DNA from: an uncultured virus (IMG/VR IMGVR_UViG_3300025894_001089)
Lineage: Duplodnaviria > Heunggongvirae > Uroviricota > Caudoviricetes
DNA: 20,000 nt
IMG/VR virus record: IMGVR_UViG_3300025894_001089
Strand: one strand, 5' to 3'
Shown here in pieces: positions 3,414 to 19,282 of the stretch; position 1 is the stretch's first letter; every line of letters begins with the position of its first letter. A model generated the notes under the pieces. That model made no database searches and was not told the DNA's origin. It saw nothing but the letters and a program-made list of their open reading frames with translations. A program made the position numbers and the translations under genes.

Positions 3414-3474
3414 GTAGGTGCCGATTAGCGGGCCTACTTACATTAATCTTGCTTAATAAAGGAGATAGCAAATG
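3414..3474 (+). promoter_or_regulatory. ROSE-like RNA thermometer in the hsp20 5'UTR
   Basis: Hairpin 1: GTAGGTgCCG-ATTAG-CGGGCCTAC (3414-3437). Hairpin 2: ATCTTGCTT-AATA-AAGGAGAT (3446-3466), pairing a UUGCU motif with the Shine-Dalgarno and leaving G3451 bulged, which is the ROSE hallmark. Confidence 0.75.
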
Positions 3475-3900
3475 AATAGATTAACAACTCTCGACCTCAA
3501 TAAACTCACCCCACATGCACTAGGTTTTGATAGCCTATTTGATGGACTGCTACGTCAAGTAGAACATGCTCCACAACAGGGGTTCCCACCTTATAACATT
3601 CGTCAAGATGAAAACAAGTTTCAAATTGAAATGGCTCTCGCTGGTGTAGAACTAGATGATCTTGATATTGAAACTGCTGAAGGAGTATTGACTATAGTTC
3701 ATGATCCTAAATCAGATTCTGACGAAGAAACAATGTTGCATAGAGGTATTGCAATTCGTAAATTTAAACGAAGTTTTACCCTTGCTGATGATGTACTAGT
3801 TAAAGGTGCCCGTATGAAGAACGGTATGTTGTTCATTGAACTAGAGAAGATCATTCCTGAAGAAAAGATGCCCAAAAAGATTGCAATTTCTTCAAGCTAG
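3472..3900 (+). CDS. ibpA: Small heat-shock protein, Hsp20/IbpA family
   Basis: GFDSLFD, FPPYNI, IEMALAG, LHRGIAIRKFKRSFTLAD, ARMKNGMLFIELEKIIPEEKMPKKIAI; strong SD AAGGAG. Confidence 0.95.
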   Translation: MNRLTTLDLNKLTPHALGFDSLFDGLLRQVEHAPQQGFPPYNIRQDENKFQIEMALAGVELDDLDIETAEGVLTIVHDPKSDSDEETMLHRGIAIRKFKRSFTLADDVLVKGARMKNGMLFIELEKIIPEEKMPKKIAISSS

Positions 3901-4008: not shown

Positions 4009-4326
4009 ATGACAGACGCACTACCAGAACAAGAAGTTAAGAAGAAAACTAAAGCAAAAGAAAATCTTAGAGAGCCGGTGCGTTTTCGTGTAATTTACAT
4101 CAACGATGAAGTTACCACAACTGAATTTGTTGTTGAAACATTGAAGACTATTTTTGATTATGATGAGCAACCAGCCGTTGCACTTACTCACAAAATACAT
4201 CAAGATGGTCTTGCAACAGTAGCAGTATTACCTTTTGAAATGGCTGAACAAAAAGGTGTTGAAGTTACAATACTAGCACGAAATCACGGTTTCCCTTTAC
4301 AAATAAAGATTGAACCAGATCAATGA
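4009..4326 (+). CDS. clpS: ClpS N-degron adaptor
   Basis: FRVIYINDEVTTTEFVVETLKTIF, KIHQDG.A, EMAEQK, ARNHGFPLQIKIEP match the ClpS core. Confidence 0.93.
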   Translation: MTDALPEQEVKKKTKAKENLREPVRFRVIYINDEVTTTEFVVETLKTIFDYDEQPAVALTHKIHQDGLATVAVLPFEMAEQKGVEVTILARNHGFPLQIKIEPDQ

Positions 4327-5742: not shown

Positions 5743-6273
5743 ATGGACTTAATGTTGGATATTGAAACACTAGGCACTAGACCCAAGTGTGTTGTATTAA
5801 CTATTGGCGTTGTGAAGTTTGATCCTCGCAAACCCGGAACTAAACAAACATTATATTTAAAACCAAATATTGATGAACAATCAAATTTAGGTAGAGAAAT
5901 ACAAGAAGATACTGTAGCATGGTGGGAACAACAAGCCGACGATGTTAAAGAAGAAGCACTTAGCAATGACAATCGAATCTCAGTAACTGAAACATTAAAA
6001 GAACTTAACAAGTTTTTTGTCGGTGCTAACAATATGTGGGCTCAAGGTCCTGCATTTGATTTTGTTATTATGGAAGATCTTTACAGAGATTTTAATATGC
6101 CTACTCCTTGGAATTTTTGGCAGATTAGAGATAGTCGTACACTATTTGGTGTACACGGCGACCCAAGGCAAAAAGGTAAAGCAGGACTACACAATGCACT
6201 AGAAGATGCAATTAGCCAAGCTGAAGCAGTACAGACAGTATTCAAACGAATAGGATTTAGTCATGCGTATTGA
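5743..6273 (+). CDS. DEDDh 3'-5' exonuclease (Rv2179c/RNase AS-like phage family)
   Basis: MLDIETLG (ExoI), WAQGPAFD (ExoII), RDSRT, HNALEDA (ExoIII). Confidence 0.88.
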   Translation: MDLMLDIETLGTRPKCVVLTIGVVKFDPRKPGTKQTLYLKPNIDEQSNLGREIQEDTVAWWEQQADDVKEEALSNDNRISVTETLKELNKFFVGANNMWAQGPAFDFVIMEDLYRDFNMPTPWNFWQIRDSRTLFGVHGDPRQKGKAGLHNALEDAISQAEAVQTVFKRIGFSHAY

Positions 6274-7408
6274 AAGTGATGTCAAGTTAGATTATAACAA
6301 TGTACTGATTAGACCTAAACGTTCAACTCTAGGTAGTCGTAAAGAAGTTGACTTATCACGAAAATTTAAATTCCGCAACTATGGCGGAGGATTTGATCTT
6401 GGTCAATATGATTATGAAGGCGTGCCAATTATGGCGGCTAACATGGATGGTGTTGGTACGTTTGAAATGGCTGAAACATTGGCAAAAAAGAAAATGTTTA
6501 CTTGTCTTGCAAAATCATATACCGGTGATGATATAATCAATTGGCTTAACACATCAACAAATAATATTGCTGATATATCAGACTACTTTGCATATAGCAT
6601 GGGCATTGTTGAACAGGATCTTGACAAGTTTGACTATGTTTATAGCTCTTATCCTGAAATGATTAAATACGTTTGTGTTGATGTAGCCAATGGTTATAGT
6701 GAACGATTTGTAGACTTTATTAGAAATCTACGTAAAGAGTATCCAAACATTGTTATTATTGCAGGTAATGTAGTGACAGCAGATCAGACTCAGGAGTTGC
6801 TTCTAAATGGAGCCGACATTATTAAGGTGGGCATTGGTCCTGGTAGTGTTTGCACTACTCGTATACAGACTGGTGTGGGATATCCCCAACTTTCCGCTGT
6901 CATTGAATGTGCTGATGCGGCTCACGGTCTTGGTGGCCTTATTATCGCTGATGGTGGATGTACTTGTCCTGGAGATGTGGCAAAGGCTTTTGCAGGCGGC
7001 GCTGACTTTGTAATGCTCGGGGGTATGTTGTCTGGACATGTTGAAGGTGGCGGCGAGGTAATTACTAAGATTTACGAAACTAACGAAGTAACTAAAACTG
7101 ATGACGGATTCTTTGAATTAGTTTATGAAGAAAAACAGTTTGTACAGTTCTACGGTATGAGTAGCAAAGCCGCAAACGAAAAACACTTTGGCGGGCTTAA
7201 AGAATATCGAAGTAGCGAAGGTCGTGAAGTACTGGTTCCTTTTAAAGGAGAAGTAGGAAATACAGTACAAGATTTGTTGGGTGGTATCCGAAGTACTTGT
7301 ACATATGTTGGAGCAAACAATCTTAAACAACTAAGTAAGTGTACAACTTTTATAATTGCACAAAGTCAATATAACTCTGTGTACGAACATATGGATACAT
7401 CAAAATGA
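6263..7408 (+). CDS. guaC: GMP reductase (type 1)
   Basis: [27 protein letters not shown]-terminus, [59 protein letters not shown]; no CBS domains. Confidence 0.96.
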
Positions 7409-7716
7409 ATATAATTATTGGTAAGGAAATAGCTGAAGAGCTAGGAAAAAAGTATACAGTATTGCCTCTTGAACAACTAGAACGAGAAGGACAAATCATT
7501 GATGCTTTTTGTGTTATTCCTGCTGATAAGATTAACCTTGGCGAAATGGTTGCACTTGATGCTAACGTTAGAATGCACCATGCTTTCAATGAAGCATATG
7601 CCAACGAAGACTGGGATAAAATGAAAGAAATTGCCGAACACCTAATAGGTAAGTTTGGTGGTGAATGTGATACATTTTATGAAGAATTGCTTAATAGACA
7701 GCCCACTGAAGCATAA
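7405..7716 (+). CDS. Hypothetical protein (103 aa)
   Basis: ATGA overlap with guaC; helical C-terminus; no confident family. Confidence 0.7.
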   Translation: MNIIIGKEIAEELGKKYTVLPLEQLEREGQIIDAFCVIPADKINLGEMVALDANVRMHHAFNEAYANEDWDKMKEIAEHLIGKFGGECDTFYEELLNRQPTEA

Positions 7717-7720
7717 ATTA

Positions 7721-7773
7721 ATAAATACCATTGTAAAAATCAATAACAGATTACTTAATGATCATAAGTAGTC
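7721..7773 (+). promoter_or_regulatory. ATAAATA box plus leader hairpin upstream of the bL33 gene
   Basis: ATAAATA at 7721-7727; GATTACTTA-ATGATCA-TAAGTAGTC (7749-7773, 9-bp stem with one U-G pair) ends 2 nt before SD AAGGA (7776-7780). Confidence 0.5.
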
Positions 7774-7788
7774 AGAAGGAAATCAGTG

Positions 7789-7989
7789 ATGGCTAGTAAA
7801 AATAAAAATGATAAAGTTTGGATGATCCCCGAAGATGAAGACCGCAAACATGCAAGTTTTCATTTTGTTCACCCAAAGAGTTTATCTGCTACACGTGAAG
7901 GTAAAAAACTAAGAATGAGAAAGTATCACCCAGTTAAGCAAAAGCACGTTTGGTTTATTGAATCTAAAATGCCACCACATAGTAAATGA
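7789..7989 (+). CDS. rpmG: 50S ribosomal protein bL33 homolog (Cys-free type)
   Basis: KKLRMRKYHPVKQKHVWFIESK aligns with the bL33 C-terminal signature (E. coli [21 protein letters not shown], from memory). 66 aa, basic, SD 8 nt upstream of the ATG at 7789. Confidence 0.8.
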   Translation: MASKNKNDKVWMIPEDEDRKHASFHFVHPKSLSATREGKKLRMRKYHPVKQKHVWFIESKMPPHSK

Positions 7990-7998
7990 GGCTAAACA

Positions 7999-8274
7999 AT
8001 GGCTAAGAAAAAACAAAGAGCAAGTCAAACTTCCAAGGGTGAAATTGGAGTTAACAAATCACTTCGTAAAGCATACAGAAGAGAGTATAAAGGAACATTG
8101 GCGCAGGCTATTAACCAACATACAGCATGGAAAAAGTTTAAAAATGTTGTTCTAACTGTTCCAAATCCTAATAAGAACGAAACGGCTAAACCTTTTATTA
8201 GAGTAAATGCACGTGATTATTGGGGAAGTCCAAAACGTACCAGTGGTGTTTTGTCTAAATCAACCACACCATAA
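7999..8274 (+). CDS. Small highly basic hypothetical protein (91 aa)
   Basis: SD GAGG overlapping the rpmG stop; K/R-rich; motif VLTVPNPNKNETAKPFIRVNARDYWG. Confidence 0.8.
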   Translation: MAKKKQRASQTSKGEIGVNKSLRKAYRREYKGTLAQAINQHTAWKKFKNVVLTVPNPNKNETAKPFIRVNARDYWGSPKRTSGVLSKSTTP

Positions 8275-8862
8275 TTTTACTGTATCGTTAACAATTTCAG
8301 TAGTTTTATAGTCGACCAATGATTCATAATGATTTGAATTGATATAACGATATTGTATATCTTTGCGACAAGTCATTGATAGATTAGAGACTACGCCATC
8401 ATTCTGGAAAGGACTTACCCACGGAGTTCTTCCTTTTGTTGGAACCAATTGTATCCATGGAATATTAAATTTAACCTGTTGCATTCCAAGTACAGGATAC
8501 GCAGTTGGGCTAACATCTTGTAGCAGTTGCCAAAATGGAAATATCCAACGTGTAACTAAAGCACTACCAAGTCCAAGATATGGTGTTGCGATAGTAATTC
8601 CAGTTTTAATCTTATTAGAAAATTTTTTGTATAGATGGGTGGCATAAATCCCACCCATGCTATGCCCAATGAGTATACAATCACCTTCTAGGTCATTGAG
8701 ACGATTGCACATAATAGGAAAATTATATGCGAAACCTTTTTTATGATCGTAACTAAGATAACAAAAGTTAACACCTTTAATATCAAGTTTTTTTAATTCT
8801 CTAACTATTAGTGCAAAGCTCTTGTTACTAGCATTCGCACCATGAATAAGGATTATGTTCAT
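8260..8862 (-). CDS. Alpha/beta hydrolase (lipase/esterase-like)
   Basis: IILIHGANAS, LIGHSMGG (GxSxG), TIATPYLG, NDGVVS, NHYE give a Ser-Asp-His triad. Confidence 0.88.
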   Translation of the reverse strand: MNIILIHGANASNKSFALIVRELKKLDIKGVNFCYLSYDHKKGFAYNFPIMCNRLNDLEGDCILIGHSMGGIYATHLYKKFSNKIKTGITIATPYLGLGSALVTRWIFPFWQLLQDVSPTAYPVLGMQQVKFNIPWIQLVPTKGRTPWVSPFQNDGVVSNLSMTCRKDIQYRYINSNHYESLVDYKTTEIVNDTVKLWCG

Positions 8863-15383: not shown

Positions 15384-16355
15384 ATGAAAGAGACTGTACT
15401 TGGAAAAAATTTCGGCTTGATGCTAGAAGACGTTGACTTAGTCAAGTATTCATCCGAAAATTTTGAAGAATTATATAGCAAATTTGTACACAATAAATTC
15501 TTGGTTATTCGAGGACATCGCGAATTAACTGATCACGAGTTTTCAAACACGTTTACTATGTTTGGAGATGGGTTCGTTTGGGACGAGGCATTTGAACGAA
15601 CTGGAGTTGGTGAAGTACATAAAATCATTCATAGAGATACTCCTCCATCAGCAGGAAAAGAAAATGCCTGGCACAACGAACTTAGTTGGCAAAAAAATCC
15701 TTGTAAGGCTGTGGTAATTAATTTAAAAGTTGTTCCAGCATATGGCAGTGATACATTATGGATTGATACTAATAAAGTATGGGAAAACTTGCCGGCGCCA
15801 TTGCGTCAACTTATACATAAAAAATCAGCATTACATTCTCCACCAACAGAAAATTATCATACAGAAATTGTAAAAATGAAAGAGCAACAAGCCGATAAAG
15901 GTTTTGAAACAGATGCTATTCATCCAATGGTTATTCAGCATCCAGATACAGGCTTGTGGCACGTATATGTTAATCCGTTGTTTACTCAATACATCAAAGG
16001 CATGGCAAAGAAAGATAGTTATTGGGTACTTCATCAAATATACGACACATTTCATATACCTGAATTCCAGTATAGACATAGATGGCAACCAGGTGATATT
16101 ATCCTATGGGACAACAGATCCACAGTACATTATGCATGTAGTGGGTACTTTCCAAACTATCGTGAAAGCAGACGATTAATGCTCATAAGCCAAAAAGGTA
16201 AACCAGAGTGGAATACAGTTGATCATCTTCCGTTGCCTTCTGAAGAAGAATACTTTAGAAGTAACCCAGAGTTCTACGGAGGTATAAGACGCCACCGAAA
16301 TAGAAAACAATGGTTCACTAGAGATATTGAAAAATTGCTTGAACAATACGGTTGA
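15384..16355 (+). CDS. TauD/TfdA-family 2OG-dependent dioxygenase
   Basis: WHNELSW, VPAYGSDTLW, HPMVIQHPDTG, YVNPLFT, PEFQYRHRWQPGDIILWDNRSTVHYA, R..RR; SD GGAG. Confidence 0.92.
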   Translation: MKETVLGKNFGLMLEDVDLVKYSSENFEELYSKFVHNKFLVIRGHRELTDHEFSNTFTMFGDGFVWDEAFERTGVGEVHKIIHRDTPPSAGKENAWHNELSWQKNPCKAVVINLKVVPAYGSDTLWIDTNKVWENLPAPLRQLIHKKSALHSPPTENYHTEIVKMKEQQADKGFETDAIHPMVIQHPDTGLWHVYVNPLFTQYIKGMAKKDSYWVLHQIYDTFHIPEFQYRHRWQPGDIILWDNRSTVHYACSGYFPNYRESRRLMLISQKGKPEWNTVDHLPLPSEEEYFRSNPEFYGGIRRHRNRKQWFTRDIEKLLEQYG

Positions 16356-16413: not shown

Positions 16414-17448
16414 ATGTCTTTTGATCAAAGTACACATCGTGTTGGTTTTGCCTGTAAATATTTGCACCCAGACCAAACACAAAAGAAGAAACTGCTAGAA
16501 GAAATTCAGCGTCCGTTAACTGAAAAGTGTACAACAGTACAATGGCTCAATAGACAAACTGTAGATGTTGCAGAACAACGGCTGTGGGATATTATGGTTC
16601 ATAACACTCAAGCAGTTTACAATCTAGTTGAATGGGTTGGCTCACAAGAGCCAGAGCTTAGAATGGTACGTATTGGCAGTAATCAATTGCCTATGTATAC
16701 ACAACCAGATTGGCGTTATTTTTGGCAACAACCAGATGTTAGAGAATATGCATCTAAAGAATATGCCAAGGCAGGTGATCTTGCACGTAAACTAGATGTG
16801 CGTCTAAGTATGCACCCTGGTCAGTTTACTGTTCTTGCTAGTGATAGCCCAGATATAGTAAATAGAAGTATAGAGGAGTTTGAATACCATGCAGATATTA
16901 TCAGATGGATGGGCTACGGCCAACAATTCCAGGACTTTAAGTGCAACGTCCATATCTCGGGTCGAGCCGGTCCACAAGGCATCAGACAAGCATTACCGCG
17001 ACTCTCCCCAGAAGCAAGAAACACAATCACGATCGAAAACGACGAAATGTCGTGGGGCCTCGAAGCATCGCTCGAACTCCAAAATGATGTCGCACTCGTA
17101 CTTGACATACACCACCACTGGGTCTCTTCAGGAGAATACATACTACCCACCGACGATAGACTTCGACGTGTAAAAGATAGTTGGCGTGGTGTCCGACCTG
17201 TTATACATTATTCTTACAGTCGTAACGAGCATTTACCAGCAGATTTTGCACACGACACTAAGCCCAACATGGAGCAACTGCTAGAATCTGGTTCTAAAAA
17301 GCAGAAACTTAGAGCTCATAGCGATTACTATCCTAATCCACTTGTTAACCAATGGGCGGCTACATTCGCAGATAGCTTTGATATAATGTGCGAAAGCAAG
17401 TGTAAGAATCTTGCTAGTATGAAATTCTACAACGAATATATTAAATGA
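16414..17448 (+). CDS. uvsE: UV-damage endonuclease UvsE/UVDE
   Basis: RVGFACK, RLSMHPGQFTVLAS, NVHISG, TIENDE, LVLDIHHHW, PVIHYS, RAHSDY, DIMCESKCKNLA. Confidence 0.94.
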   Translation: MSFDQSTHRVGFACKYLHPDQTQKKKLLEEIQRPLTEKCTTVQWLNRQTVDVAEQRLWDIMVHNTQAVYNLVEWVGSQEPELRMVRIGSNQLPMYTQPDWRYFWQQPDVREYASKEYAKAGDLARKLDVRLSMHPGQFTVLASDSPDIVNRSIEEFEYHADIIRWMGYGQQFQDFKCNVHISGRAGPQGIRQALPRLSPEARNTITIENDEMSWGLEASLELQNDVALVLDIHHHWVSSGEYILPTDDRLRRVKDSWRGVRPVIHYSYSRNEHLPADFAHDTKPNMEQLLESGSKKQKLRAHSDYYPNPLVNQWAATFADSFDIMCESKCKNLASMKFYNEYIK

Positions 17449-18927: not shown

Positions 18928-18955
18928 TTGACAAAACACTAGGATGTGCTATTAT
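18928..18955 (+). promoter_or_regulatory. Sigma70-type early promoter
   Basis: TTGACA, 16 nt, TATTAT preceded by TGn. Confidence 0.72.
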
Positions 18956-18961
18956 ATGTGT

Positions 18962-19282
18962 ATGATAAGGAAAAAACGCACAGACAGAAACCACATTATC
19001 TACAAGATCTCCAGTGGAGAAGACTTCTACATTGGTGTTACTGCTAAGACACAGAGCACCGAAAAGAAGTCCTTGCAGGTACGTTTTAACAAGCACGTAT
19101 ACCGTAGCCGTAGCGAAAACAAGGGCTGGTTGCTATACGAAGAAATGCGCCGTAAGGGTGTAGACGAATTTACTGCTGAAGTACTTGAAATAGTACGCGG
19201 AAAGACACCTGCTCACAAACGAGAACGTGAACTTATTTCAGAGTTACAACCCACTCTAAACACCGATATGCGAGGGTGTTAA
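18962..19282 (+). CDS. Stand-alone GIY-YIG nuclease domain protein
   Basis: HIIYKI...FYIGVT, RFNKH, ERELI..LQPTLN. Start taken at the ATG at 18962 because the earlier ATGs lie within or immediately beside the promoter. Confidence 0.82.
   Translation: MIRKKRTDRNHIIYKISSGEDFYIGVTAKTQSTEKKSLQVRFNKHVYRSRSENKGWLLYEEMRRKGVDEFTAEVLEIVRGKTPAHKRERELISELQPTLNTDMRGC

Follow-up and report, generated by a model that had tools for sequence, protein, structure and literature searches.

A cysteine-free bL33 of SAR11-type ancestry in a marine jumbo phage, a candidate replacement part for host ribosomes

The uncultured virus record IMGVR_UViG_3300025894_001089 of IMG/VR contains, in the 20,000-nucleotide stretch analyzed here (hereafter, "the window"), a small gene whose product is, by sequence comparison, a homologue of the ribosomal protein bL33. 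The reading that we favor, with a probability of roughly 55%, is that this protein is a virus-adapted replacement part that enters host ribosomes. Virus-encoded bL33 is already known; the novelty lies in its SAR11-type ancestry, in the existence of two sister viral clades (at least 246 contigs), in the loss of an aspartate that cellular homologues keep, and in the jumbo-phage carrier.

The bL33 open reading frame (ORF) is found on the + strand, with an ATG start codon at 7789 and a TGA stop codon at 7987–7989; a GTG at 7786 is in frame with it. The product contains no cysteine and six histidines (residues 21, 25, 28, 47, 53 and 64), and its charged residues are 16 Lys/Arg versus 7 Asp/Glu. Its motifs include P-E-D-E-D-R-K (residues 14–20), Y-H-P (46–48), a C-terminal signature (40–60) and the final M-P-P-H-S-K. 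A first-pass annotation of this DNA had quoted cysteine and histidine counts and several motifs, and all of them were recovered in the 66-residue translation. The ORF is a real gene and not a chance ORF because 54/54 relatives were matched, the gene occurs on 128 IMG/VR contigs, and the median ratio of nonsynonymous to synonymous substitution rates (dN/dS) is 0.077. A consensus scan of positions 7300–8500 detected neither a sigma-70-like promoter nor a terminator on the + strand; therefore, the gene probably belongs to a longer + strand transcript.

The bL33 assignment was examined with sequence profiles. A search with the Pfam hidden Markov model for Ribosomal_L33, suggested by the first-pass annotation, gave a mixed outcome: PF00471 does match the window protein (E 9.9e-4), aligning residues 37–60 with model positions 24–47, but the score of 19.9 bits lies below the gathering cut-off of 25 bits. 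We attribute the low score to divergence of the N-terminal half in the SAR11-type lineage, as the host bL33 is likewise a C-terminal-only match. When PDB chains were searched with phmmer (E ≤ 10), 25 sequences were retrieved, 21 of them bL33 and four of them an unrelated adenylyltransferase; the best alignment covers residues 3–61. A search of 5.8 billion proteins provided 54 candidate relatives, all of which match at E ≤ 0.01 with 60–100% identity. Seven of the 54 carried a precomputed PF00471 hit, and four of these seven are labelled L33 by JGI. A family profile and an alignment (A1) were built from the 54 relatives. Against the PDB (E ≤ 1), the profile retrieved 35 sequences, the first 33 of which were bL33 or bL33m (best E 9.3e-5), and PF00471 was matched by 45 of the 54 family members at E ≤ 0.01. 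The conserved C-terminal core of bL33, K-[YF]-x-P...[KR]-H-[VI], is present as K45-Y46-H47-P48 and K52-H53-V54.

The predicted structure was also examined. The AlphaFold2 (AF2) model computed on A1 (predicted local distance difference test score, 81.6) has strands at residues 9–14, 26–29, 42–47 and 52–59 plus a short helix, and matches the small four-stranded, zinc-ribbon-like beta fold of bL33. When the model was submitted to Foldseek, ribosome entries made up 48 of the 50 matches listed, and the others were USP30 and USP14. Superposition gave target-normalised template modelling (TM) scores of up to 0.80, with a root-mean-square deviation (rmsd) of about 2.1 Å over 52–54 columns; an example is 8rd8_bk (TM 0.80, rmsd 2.1 Å, 54 columns, probability 1.00). 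No Foldseek match reached E ≤ 0.001. Altogether, the family profile, the AF2 fold and an identity of 39–48% to SAR11 bL33 bear out the identity proposed by the first-pass annotation.

Lack of the four cysteine ligands places the protein in the zinc-free (C−) bL33 subtype, and the zinc-ribbon-free state claimed initially is confirmed by the absence of cysteine from all 66 residues. In zinc-binding forms, position x of K-Y-x-P is presumably a cysteine. A His/Glu metal site substituting for the zinc ribbon was considered and dropped: with the first knuckle placed according to what we take to be the pattern of Cys-containing bL33, the former ligand positions are occupied by His47 and, at the first knuckle, by Lys18 and Ser21, so that His47 is the only candidate ligand among them.

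When prokaryotes were scanned with one genome for each species, 170 stretches that encode a relative were obtained, 80 of which were kept for the counts of cellular loci. In 79 of these 80 loci the protein is 41–47% identical to the window protein over the full length. Judging from their titles, three of the 79 belong to Pelagibacteraceae, one to a "Proteobacteria bacterium" and 75 to Alphaproteobacteria, mostly single-cell genomes. The 79 loci encode 20 distinct proteins, and one sequence is found in 49 loci, including a Pelagibacteraceae-titled record. SAR11-type bL33 proteins are Cys-free (21 distinct locus proteins were checked). In 4/4 SAR11-type genomes (1.4–1.6 Mb), the SAR11-type bL33 is the sole PF00471 match (35.7–36.1 bits, above the cut-off), and it covers model positions 14–47 only. 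Of 41 sampled genomes of the same class, 39 have a PF00471-matched bL33, and the ordinary ones cover positions 1/2–47 with 45–65 bits; one genome of this sample is unpublished, and its locus was excluded from all alignments and no conclusion is drawn on it. A same-order sample produced a match in 156 of 187 genomes, with E-values of 8e-13 to 1.5e-10 per genome, identities of 39–48% and none closer. The closest named cellular homologues are thus Pelagibacteraceae, as the initial guess of a SAR11 kinship had it. These sequence relationships support capture of the gene by a phage ancestor from a bacterium with a SAR11-type zinc-free bL33.

Residues were compared among three sets of bL33, comprising 50 viral, 20 distinct SAR11-type and 29 other alphaproteobacterial sequences. 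The viral set is made of the 49 A1 rows with at least 60 residues (five shorter rows were dropped) plus a contig from a metagenome-assembled genome (MAG). Virus and SAR11 have in common, and the 29 others lack, a P-E insert in the first hairpin, R42, W55, M61, P62 and a 4-residue C-terminal extension. The chromosomal bL33 (rpmG) of SAR11 resembles the viral protein also in size (64 vs 66 residues), in the K-L-R-M-x-K-Y core, in the H-V-W-F-x-E-x-K-M segment, in the P-P-H-S-K tail and in matching only the C-terminal part of the Pfam model. The acidic insert and the MPPHSK tail had been viewed as viral peculiarities. They are real when compared with the 29 ordinary bL33 proteins; however, they appear to be traits inherited from the host lineage and not viral inventions, because SAR11 bL33 has both and the other Alphaproteobacteria do not.

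A second class of residues distinguishes the virus from SAR11. Differences fixed at 90% or more on each side (virus/SAR11) are K9/L, W11/Q, an extra Glu17, R19/N, H25/K, F26/Y, R36/K, R44/K and H47/D. The viral insert is two residues longer than that of SAR11, and Glu17 and Arg19 are invariant in the virus. The aspartate of K-Y-D-P is present in 20/20 distinct SAR11 sequences and in 29/29 other alphaproteobacterial sequences, while 96% of the 50 viral sequences have a histidine instead. Another difference is that SAR11 bL33 is near-invariant, whereas viral copies differ from each other by up to 40%. The virus-specific oddity is Asp47→His. His25-Phe26 is ordinary, since it aligns with an H-F of a solved bL33. 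His25 has a frequency of 92% in the viral clade. One metatranscriptome contig carries an A>G change at 7862 that turns His25 into Arg, a natural variant.

In a maximum likelihood tree of 99 rows and 67 columns, a comparison of the kind that the first-pass annotation had suggested, virus plus SAR11 were split from the 29 other Alphaproteobacteria with 100/100 support. The same tree recovers a monophyletic viral clade (100/100), to which the SAR11 rows are paraphyletic; the columns are few, the bootstrap had not fully settled and the inner forks are mostly unsupported. An earlier quick tree agreed on this split and gave the viral stem a length of 1.32 substitutions per site.

The family extends beyond this clade. 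Of 1.84 billion representatives, an exhaustive profile search picked out only 109 at E ≤ 1e-3, and some of these constitute further clades with the same P-E insert and a P-P-H-S-K-like tail. Such clades come from marine metagenomes and are labelled neither viral nor cellular. A sister viral clade, with the signature I-P-E-x-E-x-R-D-x-H-T-Y-H-Y and a conserved H-T-Y-H-Y hairpin, was found on 118 more IMG/VR contigs; Asn replaces the Asp in 40/40 distinct sequences seen, of 44. A quick tree of 143 rows unites both viral clades in one monophyletic group beside SAR11 (Shimodaira–Hasegawa-like approximate likelihood ratio test, 98; stem, 1.45). A 76-row subsampled tree with 14 unlabelled representatives presents an open three-way fork: one branch is the viral superclade (98), another joins SAR11 to two of the representatives, and the third is an unlabelled group. 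This fork, like the unlabelled clades that share the insert and the tail, is compatible with more than one donor within the SAR11-type superclade.

The window clade is present on 128 IMG/VR contigs, and 80 of them were kept for locus counts. Nei–Gojobori dN/dS values have a median of 0.077, a mean of 0.107 and a maximum of 0.38 in the 119 of 861 pairs with 0.05 < dS < 1.5; the input was 42 unique coding sequences from 75 extracted of 81, and 739 pairs were synonymously saturated. Hence, the viral bL33 clade is under strong purifying selection. Sequence comparisons also identify it as an old virus clade. A contig assigned to a "Legionellales" MAG, PBLX01000063.1 (27,770 bp), encodes a bL33 that is 64% identical to that of the window and falls inside the viral clade; it is the remaining one of the 80 loci kept from the genome scan, equals in size an IMG/VR contig carrying the gene, and is probably a phage contig binned into the MAG. 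Among 50,697 GenBank phage records, no match was found by tblastn with the window bL33 (E ≤ 10) or with a sister-clade member (E ≤ 1), nor by megablast with the whole window.

The scheme that we propose is as follows. A captured SAR11-type bL33 would have become a virus-adapted large-subunit protein. Its C-terminal half and the lineage-specific tail, almost unchanged, would dock on host 23S rRNA, while the changed N-terminal hairpin and the lost aspartate would alter another surface. During infection, the viral protein would occupy the bL33 site beside the E site, either in new 50S subunits or by exchange, and the outcome would be host ribosomes with a phage-made part. Incorporation into the host 50S subunit is plausible: viral bS21 and bL12 are described to enter Escherichia coli 70S ribosomes (PMC6375957), and bL33 is listed among the loosely bound, exchangeable, solvent-accessible proteins near the E-site tRNA (PMC6375957), with which it makes contact (PMC6375957, PMC13157829). 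Expression of the viral bL33, its incorporation and any effect on translation, including the effect on late translation proposed by the first-pass annotation, are inferred.

A 3-kb stretch around the gene gave 20 listed sequencing runs from 15 studies, all of them marine or estuarine by label. Two of the runs, from one study, provided metatranscriptome contigs over the gene: one spans 7478–8241 without mismatch and the other spans 7380–8005 with the A>G change at 7862. This cover is weak evidence for transcription because DNA carry-over is possible.

Several points weigh against the favored reading. Incorporation into the 50S subunit is argued by analogy. Foldseek E-values are weak (0.013–0.33), and the window protein scores under the Pfam cut-off. 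Loss of an invariant aspartate might equally signal departure from the ribosome, and the long stem of the viral clade (1.3–1.45 substitutions per site) may mark the same shift. Contigs from the RNA runs cover nearly all of the 3 kb in both gene orientations, as DNA contamination would. As to the host, the phage IF-1 is 53% identical to that of one SAR11 genome versus 41–58% in 39/41 sampled Alphaproteobacteria, the phage ClpP is 53% identical to that of the same SAR11 genome versus up to 59% in other Alphaproteobacteria, and GC content is 35–37% in viral loci versus a median of 27.5% in the 79 SAR11 loci. IF-1 and ClpP thus give no independent support for a SAR11 host, being no closer to SAR11 than to other Alphaproteobacteria; bL33 is the one gene that points to such a host.

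The possibility that the host is not SAR11 must thus be considered, and we regard it as unlikely but serious. The gene would then be an old mobile phage gene of SAR11-type ancestry, now residing in phages of other marine bacteria, an interpretation that concerns the host only and is compatible with the others. The presence of bL33 in at least three unrelated neighborhoods fits this idea, as do the lack of SAR11 affinity of IF-1 and ClpP, a GC content about nine points above that of SAR11 loci, and the insert and tail shared by other unlabelled clades. However, the only named cellular carriers found are Pelagibacteraceae-type genomes, and a ribosomal protein with a lineage-specific tail would be expected to suit the ribosomes of its own lineage only. 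Furthermore, a large terminase gene that adjoins bL33 in another locus (L028) is closest to that of Methylophilales phage Melnitz (62.8%), which we assume to be related to pelagimyophages.

An alternative that we consider improbable is that the phage simply tops up ordinary bL33 as host expression collapses, leaving ribosome properties unchanged. In favor of a plain spare part, the C-terminal half differs little from the host type, and bL33 is reported to be loosely bound and exchangeable (PMC6375957). The phage also carries IF-1, peptide deformylase, five tRNAs, a CCA-adding enzyme and Clp proteins. The difficulty is that the best identity found in 156 SAR11-order genomes is 48%, even though the host protein is near-invariant (49/80 loci identical). 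In addition, nine positions, the invariant aspartate included, are fixed differently in virus and host, and the aspartate was lost in both viral clades, to His in one and to Asn in the other.

Still more doubtful, in our view, is an extraribosomal role, whether as a small RNA- or DNA-binding protein, as a decoy for a bL33-binding partner or as a dominant-negative blocker of 50S assembly. The long stem branch and the lost aspartate could be so explained, the gene often adjoins that of an orphan basic protein without a SAR11 counterpart, and E. coli RpmG has been suggested to act in DNA repair, outside the ribosome (PMC4725251). An extraribosomal role is hard to reconcile with the ≥90% conservation that the 50 viral sequences show in the host-lineage tail and the C-terminal core, which indicates that the host docking surface likely still matters, and with superposition of the predicted fold on ribosome-bound bL33 (rmsd about 2.1 Å). 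As for the very improbable idea that the Cys-free phage protein spares zinc by displacing a zinc-binding host copy, like Zur-regulated alternatives, zinc-free paralogues are known to take the place of zinc-binding ribosomal proteins (PMC5912738, PMC6094098), but this explanation is rejected for SAR11-type hosts since their bL33 is itself Cys-free and single-copy, and there is no zinc form to displace.

A virus-adapted bL33 that replaces the host protein in the ribosome remains our preferred interpretation. A more ambitious version of it, which we offer as a tentative and rather unlikely proposal, is that the sister clades, which span at least 246 IMG/VR contigs and unrelated phage types, a jumbo phage among them, are no occasional theft of a host gene but an old, virus-owned bL33 lineage that has kept the SAR11-specific docking half, re-engineered the hairpin and exchanged the aspartate for His or Asn. 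The re-engineered hairpin presumably lies towards the E-site side. If the proposal were true, phages of the most abundant bacteria in the ocean would routinely build virus-specific ribosomes, and the 91-residue protein encoded beside bL33 could be a second virus-made, ribosome-associated component. A near-invariant host bL33 and a viral lineage that keeps the host tail with few fixed changes, loss of the aspartate among them, amount to a natural experiment. The function of bL33 at the E site is described as poorly understood (PMC6375957, PMC13157829), and the virus-specific positions are direct targets for asking what that role is. In a broader sense, viral ribosomal proteins blur the classic line between viruses and cells.

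The adjacent 91-residue ORF starts 9 nt after the bL33 stop codon, which is overlapped by a GAGG sequence. It has 95 relatives, and an alignment (A2) was made of the window protein plus 52 of them spanning the identity range. In 29 of the 80 IMG/VR loci it is the immediate same-strand neighbor of bL33 (upstream in 20, downstream in nine), and in two more loci it is found about 2.15 kb away. It is absent from 43 bL33 loci whose two flanks each measure at least 700 nt, and also from six loci with short flanks. The ORF exists without a bL33 neighbor in the Sinorhizobium phages phiM12, phiM7, phiM19 and phiN3, and was not found in four SAR11 genomes. The protein had no Pfam match; a PDB profile search retrieved only designed TIM barrels (E ≥ 0.044), searches with its fold gave a best E of 1.4 in Foldseek and a best Z of 2.5 in VIA-align, and the best score in a protein atlas was 0.86, under the meaningful level. 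That this ORF is a co-transcribed partner of bL33 is possible. Another small neighbor, a very basic 54-residue ORF without Pfam hit (L017:4238-4399, +, and relatives), was observed beside bL33 in about 10 of 62 loci (upstream in six, downstream in four).

The window corresponds to bases 68969–88968 of a single 228,348-bp contig with 37% GC, which IMG/VR lists as a linear virus record and estimates to be 65% complete. The contig is a fragment of a tailed jumbo phage. A PHROG scan of 114 ORFs of at least 200 residues outside the window detected tail fibre, baseplate wedge, virion structural and endolysin genes, together with DNA polymerase, primase, helicase, clamp loader, ribonucleotide reductase and thymidylate synthase. 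In the DNA polymerase, the phage shares 50.1% identity with Sinorhizobium phage Phosso and 45.6% with Agrobacterium phage Atu_ph07. The viral setting claimed by the first-pass annotation is thus sustained by hallmark genes on the same contig, by the IMG/VR virus record and by the 128 IMG/VR contigs with relatives. Its remark that no ribosomal operon gene sits beside bL33 also holds: Pfam finds no ribosomal protein family in the flanking ORFs, and no other ribosomal protein was detected by Pfam in 290 ORFs of the 228-kb record (65% complete). The Pfam scans, which took in the ORFs of the window and 150 smaller ones, did detect IF-1, peptide deformylase, ClpP, ClpX, ClpS, Hsp20 and Cpn10.

bL33 neighborhoods vary, with at least three unrelated settings. 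A GMP reductase gene upstream characterizes the lineage of the window. In 33 of the 62 loci with the bL33 ORF called, the shared genes are PC4-like, an ORF, bL33, DUF3310 and NAD-dependent ligase. Other bL33 loci adjoin small and large T4-type terminase genes.

The main features of the contig are collected in Table 1. Translation genes include IF-1, peptide deformylase, a weak PTH2-like hit, a CCA-adding-enzyme fusion and five tRNAs, a sizeable toolkit. A full proteostasis set (ClpX, Hsp20, ClpS, ClpP, ClpA-like and Cpn10-like proteins) is also present. The run of radical-SAM-like proteins may be a phage-borne modification or biosynthesis cluster.

Table 1. Features of the phage contig. Positions without a prefix are those of the window.
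Feature	Position	Strand	Remarks
Shine-Dalgarno-like GAAGG	7775..7779	+	9 nt 5' of the bL33 ATG; read from sequence
Phage bL33 homologue, coding sequence	7789..7989	+	66 aa; no Cys; SAR11-type architecture; K-Y-H-P in place of K-Y-D-P
Basic orphan ORF, 91 aa, phrog_23239	7999..8274	+	PHROG 2.4e-11, function unknown
GMP-reductase/IMPDH domain protein	6263-7408		Upstream of bL33; Pfam
ORF	7405-7716		Upstream of bL33; no significant Pfam family
ClpX	1716-2969
Hsp20	3472-3900
ClpS	4009-4326
TauD-family dioxygenase	15384-16355	+
UvdE UV-endonuclease	16414-17448	+
GIY-YIG homing-endonuclease-like ORF	18944-19282	+
IF-1	L006:2783-3007		Outside window
Peptide deformylase	L010:15078-15572	-	Outside window
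PTH2-like	L007:6905-7288		Outside window
Fusion with CCA-adding enzyme	L005:5136-8195		1020 aa; outside window
tRNAs Thr, Trp, Ala, Gly, Arg	genome 8727-10112
ClpP	L005:3467-4057
ClpA-like ATP-dependent protease	L007:13848-16151		768 aa
Cpn10-like	L006:18005-18376
Four radical-SAM-like proteins in a run (phrog_14086)	L011:2824-9181	-
PP-binding acyl-carrier-type protein	L011:12679-12930	-	Near radical-SAM run
Fe-S assembly protein	L011:9185-9484	-	Near radical-SAM run

The present gene is not the first virus-encoded bL33, and in this respect the first-pass annotation overrated it: examples are in print (PMC6375957, 12 contigs; PMC13157829, phage PhiMa05). Mizuno et al. (2019, PMC6375957) describe bL33 on 12 uncultivated aquatic viral contigs found with Pfam, with a ratio of nonsynonymous to synonymous polymorphism (pN/pS) of 0.09, and k-mer host predictions of Alphaproteobacteria for two of these contigs. 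As in our case, the gene is virus-borne, aquatic and under purifying selection (PMC6375957), and it is very likely the same gene lineage, set side by side with ours by description and not by sequence. One difference is in number: 12 contigs found with Pfam there, and 128 + 118 IMG/VR contigs here, most of them under the Pfam cut-off (seven of 54 clusters with a precomputed PF00471 hit). In passages and legends of that article, neither a SAR11-type origin nor the lost aspartate is mentioned (PMC6375957). Likewise, in literature on bL33 with phage or virus, on pelagiphage rpmG/L33 and on jumbo phages with SAR11, we found neither a SAR11-type viral bL33 clade nor the replacement of its aspartate.

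PhiMa05, a jumbo cyanophage of Microcystis, also encodes bL33, among six ribosomal proteins of Vampirovibrio-like ancestry (PMC13157829, 2026). It differs in that the 228-kb record studied here (estimated as 65% complete) yielded bL33 only, and its bL33 is not a close relative since tblastn of the window protein was blank in the 50,697 phage records.

A further parallel is offered by Pelagibacter phage HTVC008M, whose bS21, likewise a small and exchangeable protein, was taken from a SAR11 host and was shown to enter E. coli 70S ribosomes (PMC6375957). Unlike bL33, bS21 belongs to the other subunit; it is 54% identical to the host protein, and the resulting ribosomes are reported to be about 5% active in vitro (PMC6375957). 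No bS21 was found among the scanned ORFs of the 228-kb record. The zinc-free (C−) proteins of the Zur regulon offer a last comparison, as a Cys-free bL33 would also replace a resident copy in the assembled ribosome. In the Zur regulon, however, the C− protein replaces a zinc-binding paralogue within one cell, whereas here both forms are Cys-free and the replacement would be from virus to host.

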